A model generated the notes under the pieces. The model worked only from the letters and a program-made list of their open reading frames with translations. It ran no database searches and was not told the DNA's origin. From Escherichia coli (lineage in GTDB: Bacteria > Pseudomonadota > Gammaproteobacteria > Enterobacterales > Enterobacteriaceae), in the NCBI RefSeq assembly GCF_003018115.1, contig NZ_CP027457.1: 64,000 bases of DNA. One strand, 5' to 3'. Positions 25,529 through 63,000 of this stretch are shown piece by piece (positions within the stretch are counted from its first letter, which is position 1; every line of letters starts with the position of its first letter). Made by a program: the position numbers and the translations under genes.

Positions 25529-26550
25529 ATGGCGAACAGCATCACGGCGGATGAGATTCGGGAACAGTTTTCGCAGGCAATGTCAGCCATGTACCAGCAA
25601 GAAGTTCCGCAATATGGCACGCTGCTGGAACTGGTAGCTGATGTGAATCTGGCTGTGCTGGAAAACAATCCTCAACTGCACGAAAAAATGGTAAATGCAG
25701 ACGAGCTGGCGCGACTGAATGTTGAACGTCATGGGGCGATTCGTGTTGGGACTGCACAAGAGCTTGCTACTCTTCGGCGGATGTTTGCCATTATGGGGAT
25801 GTACCCGGTGAGCTATTACGATCTCTCGCAGGCGGGGGTGCCGGTACATTCGACAGCATTTCGGCCCATTGATGATCCTTCTCTGGCGCGTAATCCCTTC
25901 CGCGTTTTTACCTCGTTACTCCGCCTTGAGCTTATCGAGAACGAAATTTTGCGCCAGAAAGCGGCGGAGATTCTGCGTCAGCGCGATATCTTCACCCCAC
26001 GTTGTCGACAACTGTTAGAGGAATATGAGCAGCAGGGCGGTTTTAACGAAACACAGGCACAGGAGTTTGTGCAGGAAGCCCTGGAAACGTTTCGCTGGCA
26101 CCAGTCAGCAACGGTAGATGAAGAAACCTATCGCGCCTTGCACAACGAACATCGGTTGATTGCTGATGTGGTCTGTTTTCCTGGATGCCATATCAACCAC
26201 CTGACGCCACGTACGCTGGATATTGACCGGGTGCAGTCGATGCATGGTTCCGGTACCGTCTGACGCCTTCGGGTGAGGCGCATCGTCAGGCGATTCATCC
26301 TGGAGACGATCCACAGCCCTTAATTGAACGTGGTTGGGTAATGGCGCAACCCATCACCTATGAAGATTTCTTGCCCGTTAGCGCGGCGGGGATCTTCCAG
26401 TCAAATCTGGGTAATGAAACGCAGGCACGCAGCCACGGTAATGCCAGTCGCGAAGCATTTGAGCAGGCGTTGGGTTGTCCGGTTTTGGATGAGTTCCAGC
26501 TTTATCAGGAAGCGGAAGAACGCAGTAAACGTCGCTGTGGTTTGCTTTAA
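25529..26550 (+). pseudogene. ydcJ: DUF1338-family (HglS-like) protein gene, frame-disrupted
   Basis: 244-codon ORF (25529-26263, good RBS) ends in a stop while protein-like sequence continues in frame +1 from 26227 to 26550 (...RYRLTPSGEAHRQ...YEDFLPVSAAGIFQSNLG...). Confidence 0.6.
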
Positions 26551-32285: not shown

Positions 32286-32377
32286 TTATTTTCACCAACA
32301 CTTTTTTTTGCCACAACACGAAGCGGCGCTTTTTGCTATAACTTAAAAAGTAATATAATCATCTCAGGAAACTATTC

Positions 32378-33051
32378 ATGCGTACCACATCATTTGCGAA
32401 AGTTGCAGCTTTATGCGGCTTGTTGGCTCTGTCTGGTTGTGCCTCTAAAATCACCCAGCCAGATAAATATTCTGGTTTTTTAAACAATTACTCTGATTTA
32501 AAAGAAACAACCTCGGCTACAGGTAAACCGGTTTTACGTTGGGTAGACCCGAGTTTTGATCAAAGCAAATATGACAGCATCGTCTGGAACCCAATCACTT
32601 ATTATCCGGTACCGAAACCTTCGACCCAGGTAGGGCAGAAAGTTCTGGATAAAATTTTGAACTATACCAACACCGAAATGAAAGAAGCGATAGCGCAGCG
32701 TAAACCACTGGTTACCACCGCTGGGCCGCGTAGTCTGATTTTCCGTGGGGCCATTACCGGTGTAGATACCAGCAAAGAAGGGCTGCAATTCTATGAAGTG
32801 GTTCCTGTTGCATTAGTGGTTGCGGGGACGCAAATGAAATGGCTACAGGCCACCGTACCATGGATACTCGCCTCTATTTTGAAGGTGAGCTGATTGATGC
32901 AGCGACTAATAAACCGGTTATCAAAGTCGTTCGTCAGGGCGAAGGTAAAGACCTGAATAACGAAAGTACGCCAATGGCTTTCGAAAATATTAAACAAGTT
33001 ATTGATGACATGGCGACCGATGCCACCATGTTTGACGTTAACAAAAAGTAG
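32378..33051 (+). pseudogene. ydcL: lipoprotein gene disrupted by a 5-bp tandem duplication (AAATG AAATG)
   Basis: Signal peptide plus lipobox (LALSGC); frame breaks at 32832-32841, so the ORF track splits it into 32378-32893 and 32839-33051; removing one AAATG copy restores one continuous 222-codon frame. Confidence 0.7.
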
Positions 33052-33068
33052 TTCCAGACGCGCCATCG

Positions 33069-33575
33069 TTAGATGGCGCTTTTTATCCGGTGCGCCGTAA
33101 AACCCCATCCTTCAGGGCGGGGATATAAGGCGCGGTTTTCCACCTGACCAGGTGTTTGCTGTTGTTCAATGTATTGGCGGATGACGGATATTGGCGCACC
33201 TCCGCAGCTACTGGCAAAATAGCCAGGACTCCACAAAACGCCTTTGTAGTAATACCTGACTGCAATATCTGGTCGATCTCGTCGCAGTAACCTACCCGAT
33301 ACGCCTTTGAGGCTGTTTACCAGACTGGATATCGCCAGTTTGGGAGGTTAGTTAATTAACAAATGGACGTGATCTGGTTCGCCATCCATTTCAACCAGTT
33401 CAGCTTCAAAATAAGCACATACATTTGAAAAGTAAGTGTGTAGTTTTTCTGTCGCGTCATGGTCAAAAATCTGGCGTCGGTATCTGGTGACAAAGACCAG
33501 GTGAACATGCATCAGGAAAACACAATGCCTTCCACGCCGGATATCGGTTTCTTTTTTCACAGACCAAAGTATCAT
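33069..33575 (-). pseudogene. tnpA: IS200-type HuH single-strand transposase TnpA interrupted by an in-frame TAA
   Basis: Minus strand reads ...MHVHLVFVTRYRRQIF...EPDHVHLLIN*PPKLAISSLVNSLKGVSGRLL...LWSPGYFASSCGGAPISVIRQYIEQQ...; HuH motif lies before and the catalytic-Tyr region after the stop at 33348-33350. Confidence 0.7.
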
Positions 33576-33582
33576 TTGACCT

Positions 33583-34791
33583 GTGAAACGATTACAGGCA
33601 TTTAAATTCCAGTTAAGACCAGGTGGTCAACAGAAGTGTGAAATGAGGCGCTTCGCAGGCGCATGTCGTTTCGTTTTCAATCGTGCTCTGGCACGTCAGA
33701 ATGAGAATCATGAGGCCGGTAATAAATACATCCCTTACGGGAAAATGGCTTCCTGGCTGGTTGAGTGGAAAAATGCCACTGAAACGCAATGGCTTAAAGA
33801 TTCTCCCTCACAGCCATTGCAACAGTCACTGAAAGACCTTGAGCGGGCTTACAAAAACTTCTTCCGGAAGCGGGCTGCTTTTCCCCGATTCAAAAAGCGG
33901 GGACAGAATGATGCATTCCGCTACCCGCAGGGCGTTAAGCTCGATCAGGAAAACAGCCGTATTTTTCTGCCGAAACTGGGCTGGATGCGCTACCGGAATA
34001 GCCGTCAGGTCACGGGTGTTGTGAAAAATGTCACTGTCAGCCAGTCCTGCGGTAAGTGGTACATCAGTATTCAGACAGAAAGTGAAGTATCAACTCCGGT
34101 TCACCCTTCAGCATCAATGATCGGGCTGGATGCTGGCGTGGCTAAACTCGCCACGCTGTCAGATGGCACAGTCTTTGAGCCTGTAAACAGTTTTCAGAAA
34201 AACCAGAAGACGCTGGCGAGACTTCAGCGACAGTTAAGCCGCAAGGTCAAATTCAGCAACAACTGGCAGAAGCAGAAACGCAAAATACAGCGACTGCATT
34301 CCTGTATCGCAAATATCCGCAGGGACTACCTTCACAAAGTCACAACGGCCGTCAGCAAAAACCACGCAATGATAGTCATTGAGGATTTGAAGGTCAGCAA
34401 CATGTCAAAGTCAGCAGCGGGTACGGTCAGCCAGCCGGGGCGCAATGTCCGGGCAAAATCAGGTTTAAACCGTTCGATACTGGATCAGGGCTGGTATGAA
34501 ATGCGCCGCCAGCTTGAGTACAAGCAGCTCTGGCGTGGCGGTCAGGTGCTTGCTGTTCCGCCAGCGTATACAAGCCAGCGTTGCGCGTACTGTGGTCATA
34601 CAGCGAAAGAGAACCGCCTGTCACAAAGTAAATTCAGATGCCATGTATGTGGATATACAGCGAACGCCGATGTAAATGGCGCTCGTAACATTTTAGCGGC
34701 GGGGCACGCCGTTCTTGCCTGTGGAGAGATGGTGCAGTCAGGCCGCCCGTTGAAGCAGGAACCCACCGAAATGATTCAGGCGACAGCCTGA
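33583..34791 (+). CDS. insQ: TnpB (IS605 OrfB family) RuvC-like RNA-guided-nuclease-type transposon protein
   Basis: 402-aa ORF; RuvC-like motifs ([24 protein letters not shown]) and Zn finger CAYCGH...CHVCGY. Confidence 0.85.
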
Positions 34792-34830
34792 ACGTAGCAG
34801 GGATCCACGTCCTTCAGGGCGTGGAGGATG

Positions 34831-36006
34831 TCAATATCGGTTTCTGTCAGCGATTAAATTCAACACCACGTAACAAACGCCTCCGGCAATTAATCCCCAG
34901 AACGCTGAACCAATCCCGACCAGCGTTAATCCACTTGCCGTTACCAGAAATGCCACCACCGCCGCGTCGCGCTCACGCTCATTATGCAGCGCCTGATACA
35001 AACTGCCGCCAATGGTACTTAACAGCGCCAGACCTGCCAGCATCTGGATCCAACTTACGGGCAGGGCAGCCATCATCCCGGTAATGGCACTACCAAACAG
35101 ACCTGCGAGCAAATAGAAAATGCCTGCAACGGCAGCGGCCAGCCAACGTTGATCTTTATCCGGATGCGCTTCCGGGCTTTGGCAAATAGCTGCGGTGATT
35201 GCCGCAATACCGACGGAATAAACGCCGAAAGGGGAAAAAACCAGTGCCAGCAATCCAGTAAATACAATTAATGGCGAAACAGGAGCCGAATATCCGGCTG
35301 CTTTCATTGCTGCGATACCCGGTGCGTTTTGCGATGCCATCGTCACCAGAAAAAGGGGGAGTGCAACGCTCAGGCTGTGAGCAAACGAAAAATCAGGGGT
35401 AATATAAGTGGGGAGAACGGGTTTAAAGACAACATCAGTTGTGACAACGTCACCTTGCGCGATAACGATCACGATCCCAATAATCATCGCGGCAATTACC
35501 GCATAGCGCGGCGCAACGGCCTTGGTTGCCAGCCATACCAGCAACATACTTCCACACAACGTAAATTGACAGTCCAGACTGGCAAACGCCTGTAAACCAA
35601 AGCGTAATAAAATCCCGGCAAGCATTGCCGCCGCAAGCGAGTGCGGAATAATGCGCATCAGACGAGCAAAGAGTCCCGTTATGCCGCAGAGGACTATTAA
35701 CGCGTTGGTGACAATAAAAACGCCGATGGCTTCGTTAAGTGTTAGTCCCTGCAATCCGGTGACCAACAAAGCCGCGCCAGGCGTTGACCATGCGGTGAGA
35801 ACAGGTACGCGATACCATAATGTCAGAGTCAGCGTACTGACGCCCATTGCCAGCCCCAGCGCCGTCATCCAGCCAGAGATTTGTGCAGTGGAGGCTCCGG
35901 CGACAATCGCTGCTTGCCAGATTATTGCCGCTGAACTGGCGTAGCCAATTAATACCGCCAGAAACCCCGCCAGTAGCGTGGGTGGAGGAACAGAAAACAG
36001 ACGCAT
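34831..36006 (-). CDS. ydcO: BenE-family (benzoate transporter-like) inner membrane protein
   Basis: Internal ATG giving MRLFSVPPPTLLAGFLAVLIGYASSAAI..., 391 aa, polytopic. Confidence 0.85.
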   Translation of the reverse strand: MRLFSVPPPTLLAGFLAVLIGYASSAAIIWQAAIVAGASTAQISGWMTALGLAMGVSTLTLTLWYRVPVLTAWSTPGAALLVTGLQGLTLNEAIGVFIVTNALIVLCGITGLFARLMRIIPHSLAAAMLAGILLRFGLQAFASLDCQFTLCGSMLLVWLATKAVAPRYAVIAAMIIGIVIVIAQGDVVTTDVVFKPVLPTYITPDFSFAHSLSVALPLFLVTMASQNAPGIAAMKAAGYSAPVSPLIVFTGLLALVFSPFGVYSVGIAAITAAICQSPEAHPDKDQRWLAAAVAGIFYLLAGLFGSAITGMMAALPVSWIQMLAGLALLSTIGGSLYQALHNERERDAAVVAFLVTASGLTLVGIGSAFWGLIAGGVCYVVLNLIADRNRY

Positions 36007-57897: not shown

Positions 57898-60006
57898 ATG
57901 TCAACCGGATTACGTTTCACACTGGAAGTGGACGGCCTGCCACCGGACGCTTTTGCGGTGGTTTCCTTTCATCTCACCCAGTCACTCTCTTCACTCTTTT
58001 CCCTCGATCTCTCCCTGGTCAGCCAGCAGTTTCTCTCCCTTGAATTTGCGCAGGTGCTGGACAAAATGGCCTACCTGACAATATGGCAGGGTGATGATGT
58101 ACAGCGCCGGGTGAAAGGTGTGGTGACCTGGTTTGAACTGGGGGAGAACGACAAAAACCAGATGCTGTACAGCATGAAGGTGCACCCGCCGCTGTGGCGT
58201 GCCGGTCTGCGCCAGAACTTCCGTATCTTCCAGAACGAGGACATCAAAAGCATCCTCGGCACGATATTGCAGGAAAACGGGGTGACCGAGTGGAGTCCGC
58301 TGTTCAGTGAACCGCATCCTTCCCGTGAGTTTTGTGTCCAGTACGGTGAGACTGATTACGATTTCCTGTGCCGGATGGCGGCGGAGGAAGGCATCTTCTT
58401 TTATGAGGAGCATGCTTACAAAAGTACCGACCAGAGCCTGGTGCTGTGCGACACGGTCCGCCATCTGCCCGAATCTTTTGAAATCCCCTGGAACCCGAAC
58501 CCCCGTACCGAGGTGAGCACCCTCTGCATCAGCCAGTTTCGCTACAGCGCACAAATCCGCCCTTCTTCCGTGGTGACCAAAGACTACACCTTTAAACGCC
58601 CCGGCTGGGCAGGACGTTTTGATCAGGAAGGCCAGCACCAGGATTACCAGCGCACGCAGTATGAGGTGTATGACTACCCCGGACGTTTCAAGGGCGCCCA
58701 CGGGCAGAACTTTGCCCGCTGGCAGATGGAGGGCTGGCGAAACAATGCAGAAACCGCGCGGGGAATGAGTCGCTCGCCGGAGATATGGCCGGGACGGCGA
58801 ATTGTGCTGACGGGGCATCCGCAGGCGAACCTGAACCGGGAATGGCAGGTGGTGGCGAGCGATCTTCACGGCGAACAGCCGCAGGCGGTACCGGGACGCA
58901 GGGGTTCAGGCACCACGCTGGATAACCATTTTGCGGTAATACCGGCAGACCGGACATGGCGACCACAGCCGTTGCTGAAACCGCTGGTGGATGGCCCGCA
59001 GAGCGCCGTCGTGACGGGACCGGCAGGCGAGGAAATCTTCTGCGACGAACATGGTCGCGTGCGGGTGAAATTTAACTGGGACCGCTATAACCCGTCAAAC
59101 CAGGACAGTTCATGCTGGATCCGTGTGGCACAGGCGTGGGCAGGCACCGGCTTTGGCAACCTGGCGATACCGCGTGTGGGTCAGGAGGTGATTGTGGACT
59201 TCCTCAACGGCGATCCGGACCAGCCGATTATTATGGGGCGTACCTACCACCAGGAAAACCGCACACCCGGCAGCCTGCCGGGGACGAAGACGCAGATGAC
59301 CATTCGTTCGAAAACCTATAAGGGCAGCGGGTTTAATGAACTGAAGTTTGACGATGCGACAGGGAAAGAACAGGTCTACATCCACGCGCAGAAGAACATG
59401 AACACCGAGGTGCTGAATAACCGCACCACGGATGTGATAAACAACCATGCTGAGACCATTGGCAACAATCAGATGATTGCGGTTACCAACAATCAGATAC
59501 AGACGGTGGGCGTTAACCAGATAGAGACGGTGGGCAGTAACCAGATCATTAACGTGGGTTCTGTTCAGGTGGAAACGATTGGACTTGTTCGTGCGCTGAC
59601 CGTGGGCGTGGCGTACCAGACGACGGTAGGTGGCATTATGAACACTTCGGTGGCTCTGATGCAGTCCTCGCAGATCGGTTTGCATAAATCGTTGAGGGTC
59701 GGGCTGGGTTATGACGTCAAAGTCGGAAATAACGTTACCTTCACCGTTGGTAAAACGAAAAAGGATGATACCGGGCAGACCGCGATTTACTCCGCCGGTG
59801 AGCATCTGGAGCTCTGCTGTGGTAAGGCAAAGCTGGTGCTGACAAAGGACGGTCAAATTTTTCTCAACGGCACAAAAATTCATTTGCAGGGTAAGGAGCA
59901 GGTTAATGGTGACTCACTGTTGATTAACTGGAACTGTGCAGCCTCGAAATCCCCACCGAAGACCCCTGATGAAAAGCAGGATACGCCGGATATGAGAGAG
60001 TACTGA
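57898..60006 (+). CDS. vgrG: VgrG-family protein (T6SS spike, gp27/gp5-like) with Val-Gly repeat C-terminal region
   Basis: ATG at 57898 after GGAGG; MSTGLRFTLEVDGLPPDAF...; VG-rich repeats (NNQMIAVTNNQIQTVGVNQIETVGSNQIINVGSVQVETIG); high GC. Confidence 0.85.
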   Translation: MSTGLRFTLEVDGLPPDAFAVVSFHLTQSLSSLFSLDLSLVSQQFLSLEFAQVLDKMAYLTIWQGDDVQRRVKGVVTWFELGENDKNQMLYSMKVHPPLWRAGLRQNFRIFQNEDIKSILGTILQENGVTEWSPLFSEPHPSREFCVQYGETDYDFLCRMAAEEGIFFYEEHAYKSTDQSLVLCDTVRHLPESFEIPWNPNPRTEVSTLCISQFRYSAQIRPSSVVTKDYTFKRPGWAGRFDQEGQHQDYQRTQYEVYDYPGRFKGAHGQNFARWQMEGWRNNAETARGMSRSPEIWPGRRIVLTGHPQANLNREWQVVASDLHGEQPQAVPGRRGSGTTLDNHFAVIPADRTWRPQPLLKPLVDGPQSAVVTGPAGEEIFCDEHGRVRVKFNWDRYNPSNQDSSCWIRVAQAWAGTGFGNLAIPRVGQEVIVDFLNGDPDQPIIMGRTYHQENRTPGSLPGTKTQMTIRSKTYKGSGFNELKFDDATGKEQVYIHAQKNMNTEVLNNRTTDVINNHAETIGNNQMIAVTNNQIQTVGVNQIETVGSNQIINVGSVQVETIGLVRALTVGVAYQTTVGGIMNTSVALMQSSQIGLHKSLRVGLGYDVKVGNNVTFTVGKTKKDDTGQTAIYSAGEHLELCCGKAKLVLTKDGQIFLNGTKIHLQGKEQVNGDSLLINWNCAASKSPPKTPDEKQDTPDMREY

Positions 60007-60073
60007 TCCCGTACCTGTTCGATATTCATTAACAAACCAGCATTAAAAATAAACAGAAGAAGGAATTTGAATC

Positions 60074-63000
60074 ATGAGCGGAAAACCAGCGGCGCGTCAG
60101 GGAGATATGACTCAGTATGGCGGTCCCATTGTCCAGGGTTCGGCAGGTGTAAGAATTGGCGCGCCAACTGGCGTGGCGTGCTCGGTGTGTCCGGGCGGGA
60201 TGACCTCGGGCAACCCGGTGAACCCGCTGCTCGGTGCAAAAGTACAGCCCGGCGAGACGGACCTTGCGCTGCCCGGCCCGCTGCCGTTCATTCTCTCCCG
60301 CACCTACAGCAGCTACCGGACCCGGACGCCTGCACCGGTGGGCGTTTTCGGCCCCGGCTGGAAAGCGCCTTCTGATATCCGCTTACAGCTACGTGATGAC
60401 GGACTGATACTCAACGACAACGGCGGGCGGAGCATTCACTTTGAGCCGCTGCTGCCAGGGGAGGCGGTGTACAGCCGCAGCGAGTCCCTGTGGCTGGTGC
60501 GCGGTGGTAAGGCAGCACAGCCGGACGGCCATACGCTGGCACGGCTGTGGGCGTCGCTGCCGCCGGATATCCGGTTAAGCCCGCATCTTTACCTGGCGAC
60601 CAACAGCGCACAGGGGCCGTGGTGGATACTGGGGTGGTCTGAGCGGGTGCCGGGTGCTGAGGACGTACTGCCAGCGCCGCTGCCGCCGTACCGGGTGCTT
60701 ACCGGGATGGCGGACCGCTTCGGGCGGACGCTGACGTACCGGCGTGACGGACGGTGCCGGGCGTGAGTTCCGTCTGGTGCTGACCACACAGGCGCAGCGG
60801 GCGGAAGAGGCCCGGCAGCAGGCGGTCGTCGCCGGAGCAAAACGACCGGACATTCCTGATTCACTGCCGGAGAGCACAGAGTACGGCCCCGACAGGGGTA
60901 TCCGTCTTTCAGCGGTGTGGCTGATGCACGACCCGGCATACCCGGAGAATCTGCCCGGTGCGCCACTGGCGCGGTACACGTATACGGAAGCCGGTGAACT
61001 GCTGGCGGTATATGACCGCAGCAATACGCAGGTGCGTGCTTTCACGTATGACCCGCAGCACCCGGGCCGGATGGTGGCGCACCGTTACGCGGGAAGGCCG
61101 GAGATGCGCTACCGCTACGACGATACGGGGCGGGTGGTGGAGCAACTGAACCCGGCAGGGTTAAGCTACCGCTATCTTTATGAGCAGGACCGCATCACCG
61201 TCACCGACAGCCTGAACCGGCGTGAGGTGCTGCATACAGAAGGCGGGGCCGGGCTGAAGCGGGTGGTGAAAAAAGAACTGGCGGACGGCAGCGTCACGCG
61301 CAGCGGGTATGACCCGGTGGGGCGGCTTACGGCGCAGACGGACGCGGCGGGACGGCGGACAGAGTACGGTCTGAATGTGGTGTCAGTCGACATCACGGAT
61401 ATCACCACGCCGGACGGGCGGGAGACGAAATTTTACTATAACGACGGGAACCAGTTAACGGCAGTGGTGTACCCGGACGGGCTGGAGAGCAGCCGGGCAT
61501 ATGATGAGCTGGACAGGCTGGTAACGGAGACATCGCGCAGCGGGGAGACAGTACGCTACCGCTATGATGATGCGCACAGTGAATTACCGGCCACAACAAC
61601 AGATGCGACGGGCAGCACCCGGCAGATGACGTGGAGCCGCTACGGTCAGTTGCTGGCGTTCACCGACTGCTCGGGCTACCAGACCCGCTATGAATACGAC
61701 CGCTTCGGCCAGATGACGGCGGTCCACCGCGAGGAAGGCATCAGCCTTTACCGCCGCTATGACAACCGTGGCCGGTTAATCTCGGTGAAAGACGCACAGG
61801 GCCATGAAACGCGGTATGAATACAACGCCGCAGGCGACCTGACTGCCCTCATTACCCCGGACGGCAACCGGAGCGAGACACAGTACGATGCGTGGGGAAA
61901 GGCGGTCAGCACCACGCAGGGCGGGCTGACGCGCAGTATGGAATACGACCTTGCCGGACGCATCACCACGCTGACCAACGAGAACGGCAGCCGGAGTGAG
62001 TTTACCTACGATGCGCTTGACCGGCTGGTACAGCAGCGCGGCTTTGACGGGCGGACGCAACGTTACCACTATGACCTGACCGGAAAACTCACGCAGAGTG
62101 AAGATGAGGGGCTTGTCACCCTCTGGCACTACGACGAATCGGACCGCCTCACTCACCGCACGGTGAACGGCGAACCGGCAGAGCAGTGGCAGTATGATGG
62201 CCACGGCTGGCTGACAGAAATCAGCCACCTGAGCGAAGGCCATCAGGTGGCGGTGCATTACGGTTATGATGATAAGGGCCGCCTGGCCGGGGAGCGCCAG
62301 ACGGTGCATAACCCGGAGACGGGGGAACTGCTGTGGCAGCATGAGACAGAGCACGCATACAACGAACAGGGGCTGGCAAACCGCGTCACGCCGGACGGCC
62401 TGCCGCGGGTGGAGTGGCTGACCTACGGCAGCGGTTATCTTGCGGGGATGAAGCTGGGCGGGACACCTCTGGTCGAGTATACGCGGGACCGCCTGCACCG
62501 GGAAACTGCGCGCAGCTTTGGTAACGGAACGGGCAGTACAGCCGCATATGAACTGACCAGCACTTACACCCCCGCAGGCCGGTTACAGAGCCAGCACCTG
62601 AACAGCCTGATGTATGACCGTGACTACGTGTGGAATGACAACGGCGACCTGGTGCGCATCAGCGGCCCGCGACAGACGCGGGAATACGGCTACAGCGCCA
62701 CGGGCAGGCTGGAGAGCGTGCGCACCCTCGCACCGGACCTGGACATCCGCATCCCGTATGCCACCGACCCGGCGGGAAACCGGCTGCCGGACCCGGAGCT
62801 ACACCCGGACAGCACGCTCACGGCGTGGCCGGATAACCGCATCGCGGAGGATGCGCACTATGTTTACCACTATGATGAATACGGCAGGCTGACGGAGAAG
62901 ACGGACCGCATCCCGGCGGGTGTGATACGGACGGACGACGAGCGGACCCACCACTACCACTACGACAGCCAGCACCGTCTGGTGTTCTACACGCGGATAC

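Follow-up and report, generated by a model that had tools for sequence, protein, structure and literature searches.

The lipoprotein gene ydcL is broken in the Escherichia coli genome from which the stretch of DNA analysed here (64,000 nucleotides, hereafter the window) was taken, and at the point where the reading frame is lost the pentanucleotide AAATG is present in two consecutive copies. This configuration raises the question of what the second copy represents, namely, a recent inactivating mutation, a reversible switch acting on an envelope protein, a tolerated split of the gene into two functional parts, the footprint of a DNA break or an error in the record. With a probability of about 0.8, we consider the answer to be a real, very recent and spontaneous 5-bp duplication in a single isolate or clone that gave rise to a null allele of ydcL. 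The best interpretation of the locus as a whole is a recent, strain-private loss-of-function frameshift; it is not a case of phase variation, and a sequencing error is improbable.

The first-pass annotation held that the gene is ydcL, that its frame is broken by a 5-bp tandem duplication and that deletion of one repeat unit joins 152 N-terminal codons, including an LSGC lipobox, to a 70-codon open reading frame (ORF); on all these points it was correct. The decamer AAATGAAATG (AAATG AAATG) occupies exactly the interval listed in Table 1, in the context 5'-GGGGACGC AAATG AAATG GCTACAGG-3', and two ORFs result. In silico removal of one AAATG yields a continuous frame of 669 nt (222 codons), the product of which matches the Pfam family PF11769 (DUF3313) with E = 4.1e-63 over residues 30-213 and profile positions 1-186 of 187. 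At the nucleotide level, the repaired gene is 100% identical to ydcL of the enterotoxigenic (ETEC) strain F9792 (locus L015), and it shows four synonymous differences and no amino acid differences from its K-12 counterpart (b1431), which is annotated as 'DUF3313 domain-containing lipoprotein YdcL'. The signal peptide ends in the lipobox cysteine (LLALSGC, C21), and lipidation of the protein is predicted; the canonical lipobox conforms to the consensus [LVI][ASTVI][GAS]C, with the residue at position +2 entering the sorting rule for lipoproteins, and the DUF3313 family consensus retains the motif L-x-G-C. The position of the gene is likewise orthologous, between tehB on one side and IS609/insQ followed by ydcO on the other; the local gene order is tehA-tehB-ydcL-IS609 (yncK pseudogene, insQ)-ydcO-sutR, and the stretch from tehA to ydcO is arranged as in K-12 and F9792. 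Upstream of the gene, 69 nt from the start codon, there is a run of eight T residues (32302-32309), which is a T7 run in F9792 and most relatives and a T8 run in OU349837.1 and, judging by this distribution, is a natural homopolymer polymorphism.

Table 1. Features of the disrupted ydcL locus, with positions counted from the first nucleotide of the window
Feature	Coordinates	Strand	Basis or remarks
ydcL (b1431 orthologue), frameshifted pseudogene, 674 nt instead of 669	32378..33051	+	Synteny; repaired product equals K-12 YdcL
Signal peptide and lipobox (L18-S19-G20-C21), Ala at +2	32378..32440	+	Translation; unaffected by the mutation
N-terminal ORF, 171 aa	32378..32893	+	Native residues 1-153, then 18 residues read out of frame up to a TGA stop
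5-bp tandem duplication AAATG AAATG	32832..32841	+	Either copy can be called the insert; single copy in the comparators
C-terminal ORF, 70 aa, without signal peptide	32839..33051	+	Equals native residues 153-222
Intrinsic terminator of ydcL, 8-bp GC-rich stem and T-run	33060..33084	+	Adjoins the left end of IS609 at 33087

The duplication falls within codons 152-153 and shifts the frame by +2 (modulo 3) after Met153. Translation of the upstream ORF continues through 18 out-of-frame residues, KWLQATVPWILASILKVS, whereas the downstream ORF starts at the ATG of the second AAATG copy, which is the native Met153 codon. On the DUF3313 profile, the two fragments cover positions 1-126 and 126-186 of 187, respectively. 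The frame is thus broken relative to conserved full-length orthologues: YdcL-like proteins of ~222 aa are conserved across the Enterobacteriaceae, and family members with as little as ~25% identity align over residues 10-217. In an alignment of 98 sequences of the DUF3313 family, no column other than E167 is invariant; D172 is conserved to at least 90%, and both residues are located downstream of the frameshift. An AlphaFold model built on the same alignment (pLDDT 93.1, pTM 0.85) predicts an alpha/beta lipoprotein fold, in which the region following residue 153 contributes two long beta-strands (160-172 and 177-187) and a C-terminal helix (201-216), all of which are lost from the truncated product together with E167 and D172. 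A search by sequence for a solved structure of YdcL returned none. The fold search with the model recovered PelC, HpaA, the periplasmic domain of CsgG and LptE-like lipoproteins, with TM scores of 0.3-0.55, and assignment of a function to YdcL from these similarities was rejected, because they are too weak.

The consequences for the cell can be projected from these features. The 171-residue protein would still be made, exported and lipidated, given that both the signal peptide and the lipobox are kept, and would probably be misfolded and non-functional without the last third of the DUF3313 domain, while any separately produced C-terminal fragment of 70 aa would be expected to stay in the cytoplasm. 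Both conservation and the predicted structure suggest that the truncated YdcL should be non-functional, and a null allele is expected because the missing third includes the two strands, the C-terminal helix and the invariant E167. The gene is monocistronic and has a terminator of its own, and its downstream neighbour is encoded on the other strand; polar effects are therefore not expected. The predicted outcome is, accordingly, a null allele that would deprive the cell of a non-essential envelope lipoprotein and leave the neighbouring genes unaffected.

How widespread and how old is this allele? An 80-nt probe centred on the duplication was compared with 5,426 complete E. coli genomes, of which 5,298 yielded a match. 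In the best of these matches, 75 of the 80 positions were identical (93.8%), the 75-base span being that with a single AAATG copy, and none reached 95%; the two-copy form is present in 0 of the 5,298 genomes. The 40-nt sequence across the duplication junction had 0 matches among metagenome contigs, and a large collection of gene products has no entry for the exact truncated protein of 171 aa. Comparison of ydcL across related isolates gave the same result: in all seven related assemblies, which were found through loci anchored on the identical protein encoded by the neighbouring tnpB, the gene is intact, encodes 222 aa and contains one AAATG. Over 20.9 kb, only two substitutions separate the closest relative, GCA_015956865.1, from the window, along with differences in length at the T7/T8 run, at the AAATG repeat and in hglS, where the window has the deletion described below. 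GCA_032830195.1, GCA_014631615.1 and GCA_016660305.1 also rank among the nearest assemblies. Apart from the duplication itself, there are 0 nucleotide differences between ydcL of the window and that of F9792. Because the gene has undergone no further decay, as witnessed by this identity and by a repaired product indistinguishable from K-12 YdcL, the event would have to be recent. To judge from these comparisons, the duplication is derived, private to one genome among everything that was searched, and recent, which makes the inactivating mutation proposed by the first-pass annotation the favoured reading.

Privacy to a single genome is also what would be expected if the true genome carried one AAATG and the extra copy had been introduced during consensus building or editing, and the fact that the two-copy allele is absent from every other genome or contig searched has to be weighed on that side. 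So do two further length changes that are private to the same record and could reflect a problem with it. Nevertheless, we regard an artefact of sequencing, assembly or record keeping as unlikely. None of the common sequencing platforms typically produces a clean 5-bp tandem copy by error. Moreover, over ~60 kb compared with near-clonal relatives (window positions 3301-64000; the remainder was compared with F9792), there are no stray single-base indels, in homopolymers or elsewhere, with the exception of the T7/T8 run; a sequencing error is unlikely in view of this lack of single-base indel noise. Finally, one of the two other private length changes, a 38-bp deletion in an rhs gene, is bounded precisely by two direct repeats of 10 bp. 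This biological signature speaks for genuine mutations as the source of the length changes in the record. This indirect evidence favours a real duplication over an assembly error. The earlier suggestion that the change could be a mutation and not a sequencing error therefore stands in so far as the clean indel profile makes an error unlikely, whereas error retains its place as a rival explanation.

If the duplication is real, as we believe, it calls for a mechanism. The period-5 register extends over exactly 10 nt, that is, two units, and does not continue on either side. Two-copy repeats of 5-mers occur at 73 positions in the window compared with 61.6 +/- 11.4 in shuffled sequences; the repeat in ydcL is unremarkable in isolation and acquires its significance from the comparison with other genomes only. 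The insert is an exact copy of the adjacent bases, the ancestral state being one copy, and the ancestral sequence GACGCAAATGGCTAC has 0 nt of flanking microhomology, without a short repeat at which a nascent strand could have re-paired. The most plausible course of events is a spontaneous duplication of AAATG, probably de novo through replication template-slippage or a fill-in error, that would have proceeded without the microhomology of textbook slippage. The description of the site as a classic slipped-strand duplication thus holds for the tandem duplication and goes too far on the mechanism: slipped-strand mispairing is not obviously favoured given the lack of flanking microhomology. Spontaneous frameshifts caused by short tandem duplications are reportedly known in E. 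coli from the CTGG hotspot of lacI, which is said to have been described by Farabaugh et al. in 1978. The two cases are alike in that a few bases are copied head to tail within a coding region, causing a frameshift and a null allele that can revert by loss of a copy. They differ in that lacI has three pre-existing copies that template the slippage, whereas the ancestor of the ydcL allele had a single AAATG, so that the latter duplication arose de novo and is not an expansion. Two other potential contributors were considered and rejected: templating by a quasi-palindrome, because the local hairpins predicted do not change when the duplication is removed and the inserted bases have no pairing partner, and an overlapping RNA element, because Rfam gives no match at the duplication.

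A less conventional origin would be repair, by fill-in and rejoining, of a staggered double-strand cut, so that the second AAATG would be either the 5-bp target-site duplication of an element that has since vanished or the trace of a nuclease, such as the TnpB/InsQ protein of IS609. A direct 5-bp duplication without microhomology is precisely what the filling-in of a 5-nt stagger should produce, and an intact tnpB gene is located 750 bp downstream. Target-site duplications of 5 bp are made by IS2, members of the IS3 family, Tn3 and Mu, and, as in ydcL, they are direct duplications of host sequence formed without prior homology. Unlike in these cases, however, no element or scar lies between the AAATG copies of ydcL, and relatives with an AAATG-flanked element at the site have so far not been found in large collections. 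Furthermore, no known mechanism removes an element and yet keeps both target copies; excision of bacterial IS is not known to leave both copies, IS200/IS605 elements generate no target duplication and E. coli lacks classical end joining. Involvement of the IS609 TnpB was rejected, given that no guide-like match of at least 9 nt was found between the duplication site and the right-end/ydcO flank of the IS; the only match of at least 9 nt between the site and IS609 involves the left part of the element: it is 10 nt long and lies ~40 nt downstream of the duplication. We therefore consider a staggered-cut footprint very improbable, and a spontaneous duplication remains our preferred reading.

Equally improbable, in our estimate, is the proposal that ydcL is a phase-variable contingency gene, in which the number of AAATG units would reversibly toggle the surface lipoprotein YdcL on and off. 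The proposal has some appeal: the unit forms part of the coding sequence for an envelope lipoprotein, the frame of which depends on the number of units, and the loss of one of the two copies could in principle bring about reversion. In the well-known simple-repeat contingency loci, for instance, the CTCTT pentamers of the Neisseria opa genes or the tetranucleotides of Haemophilus, the tracts consist of many units. The resemblance to opa extends to the pentameric unit and to the principle whereby copy number within the coding region sets the frame of an envelope gene. By contrast, those tracts vary in length both between and within isolates, whereas ydcL has two units in one genome and one in all the others examined, as in its ancestral state. 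Variation in the number of AAATG units was observed in none of the 5,298 complete genomes and in none of the seven related assemblies, all of which have one copy; Tandem Repeats Finder reports no array at the ydcL site; and the other null alleles of ydcL are due to commonplace mutations that are irreversible, for example, nonsense codons or an IS1 insertion. Consequently, the suggestion of phase variability in the first-pass annotation was not upheld. The AAATG allele could revert by copy loss, but nothing points to a programmed switch, which is not supported.

As for the notion that the split gene still functions, by programmed ribosomal frameshifting or by assembly of two fragments, both halves do persist as ORFs and the second begins at the native Met153 codon, but the sequence CAA-ATG-AAA-TGG contains neither a slippery heptamer nor a known +1 shift site, the C-terminal fragment, for want of a signal peptide, would be unable to join the exported N-terminal part and a single protein of ~222 aa is found in all other genomes and genera searched, so that we give this notion practically no credence.

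The null allele favoured here is not the only one in ydcL. Many other assemblies also list the same C-terminal ORF of 70 aa as a gene in its own right, with ydcL broken there by different lesions (loci L004-L013, some of them from visibly error-prone assemblies, namely, L006 and L011). These include the nonsense alleles Q107* (also found in the complete genome AP022298.1), Y139* and Q152*; 1-bp deletions in runs of G or T, such as delG370 and delG447; IS1 insertions, one of them near nt 360; and, in GCA_966576265.1 (L009), an independent tandem duplication of 7 bp (GTGTAGA x2). The AAATG duplication is found in none of these other null alleles. All have in common with the allele described here that the disruption lies upstream of Met153 and leaves the same 70-aa ORF, but the lesions are different and independent, with L009 being the one that is also a short tandem duplication. 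Independent null lesions in other assemblies indicate that ydcL tolerates loss; no inference on selection for such loss follows, because any dispensable gene would show alleles of this kind among very many genomes.

In terms of significance, the AAATG duplication is a previously unrecorded and yet ordinary null allele of a dispensable envelope lipoprotein, which carries little weight alone. For annotation, it means that ydcL in this genome is better described as one frameshifted pseudogene than as two small genes, and, for those interested in the protein, the isolate would offer a knockout of ydcL that arose naturally, in a wild strain background. YdcL is barely characterised. It has been listed among the proteins associated with outer membrane vesicles (PMC10673343), it is ~2-fold up in a cysB mutant (PMC6761508) and the Keio ydcL knockout is thermosensitive at 47 °C, with Mg2+ rescuing the defect (PMC3112155). 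In view of the behaviour of the Keio mutant, a mild outer-membrane phenotype could be sought in the isolate.

A broader point concerns a possible genome-wide excess of private frameshifting indels in the isolate. Besides ydcL, two genes in the window are affected. In hglS/ydcJ (25529-26263), there is a private deletion of 322 bp, the ends of which meet at 26242 with 1-nt microhomology (GTCGATG|CATGG), that causes a frameshift and reduces the product to 244 aa, while the gene is intact, with 447 codons for amino acids, in 11 of the 11 related assemblies that were checked. In the rhs core gene downstream of vgrG (60074-60766), the 38-bp deletion mentioned above, also private, has its junction at 60738-60747 and spans exactly the interval between two 10-bp direct repeats, ACCGGCGTGA; the resulting frameshift leads to a stop at codon 231 of 1404 in a gene that is intact in six near-clonal assemblies. 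Exact look-ups of the truncated HglS and truncated Rhs products found neither on record. Private single-nucleotide polymorphisms (SNPs) in the window are also three in number: C12134T, which results in P337L in ynbD; A25130G, which is synonymous in ydcI; and T58263G, which is silent in vgrG. The 64 kb thus contain three private frameshifting indels (hglS, ydcL and rhs) against three private SNPs, a ratio of ~1:1, whereas the spectra obtained in E. coli mutation-accumulation experiments lead one to expect indels and SNPs at ~1:10 or lower. It is conceivable, albeit doubtful, that the ydcL duplication belongs to a burst of illegitimate-recombination or slippage events and that the isolate has been in an indel-biased regime. 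Possible causes of such a regime are a defect in replication or repair (affecting flap or ssDNA-exonuclease processing, or of the RecQ/UvrD type), prolonged storage or stress and strongly relaxed selection; the excess as such could reflect the history of the strain, indel-prone replication or repair, relaxed selection or a problem with the record.

The region around vgrG differs from F9792 in yet another respect: the latter strain (locus L003) is devoid of ~2.5 kb across the vgrG-rhs junction, corresponding to window positions 58608-61131, which are kept in the window and in the near-clonal relatives. VgrG is intact, with 702 aa, in the window and in these relatives. The distribution of the segment implies that F9792 has lost it, and not that the window has gained it.

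The IS609 copy next to ydcL (33087-34834) is as in K-12: tnpA (yncK), on the minus strand, is degraded, and tnpB/insQ (33583-34791) is intact and encodes 402 aa. The only Rfam hit, a weak, sub-threshold match to an HgcC-like RNA (22 bits, E = 0.036), extends from 34728 to 34844, over the 3' end of tnpB and the right end of the IS; the guide RNA of TnpB is expected at the tnpB 3' end and IS right end.
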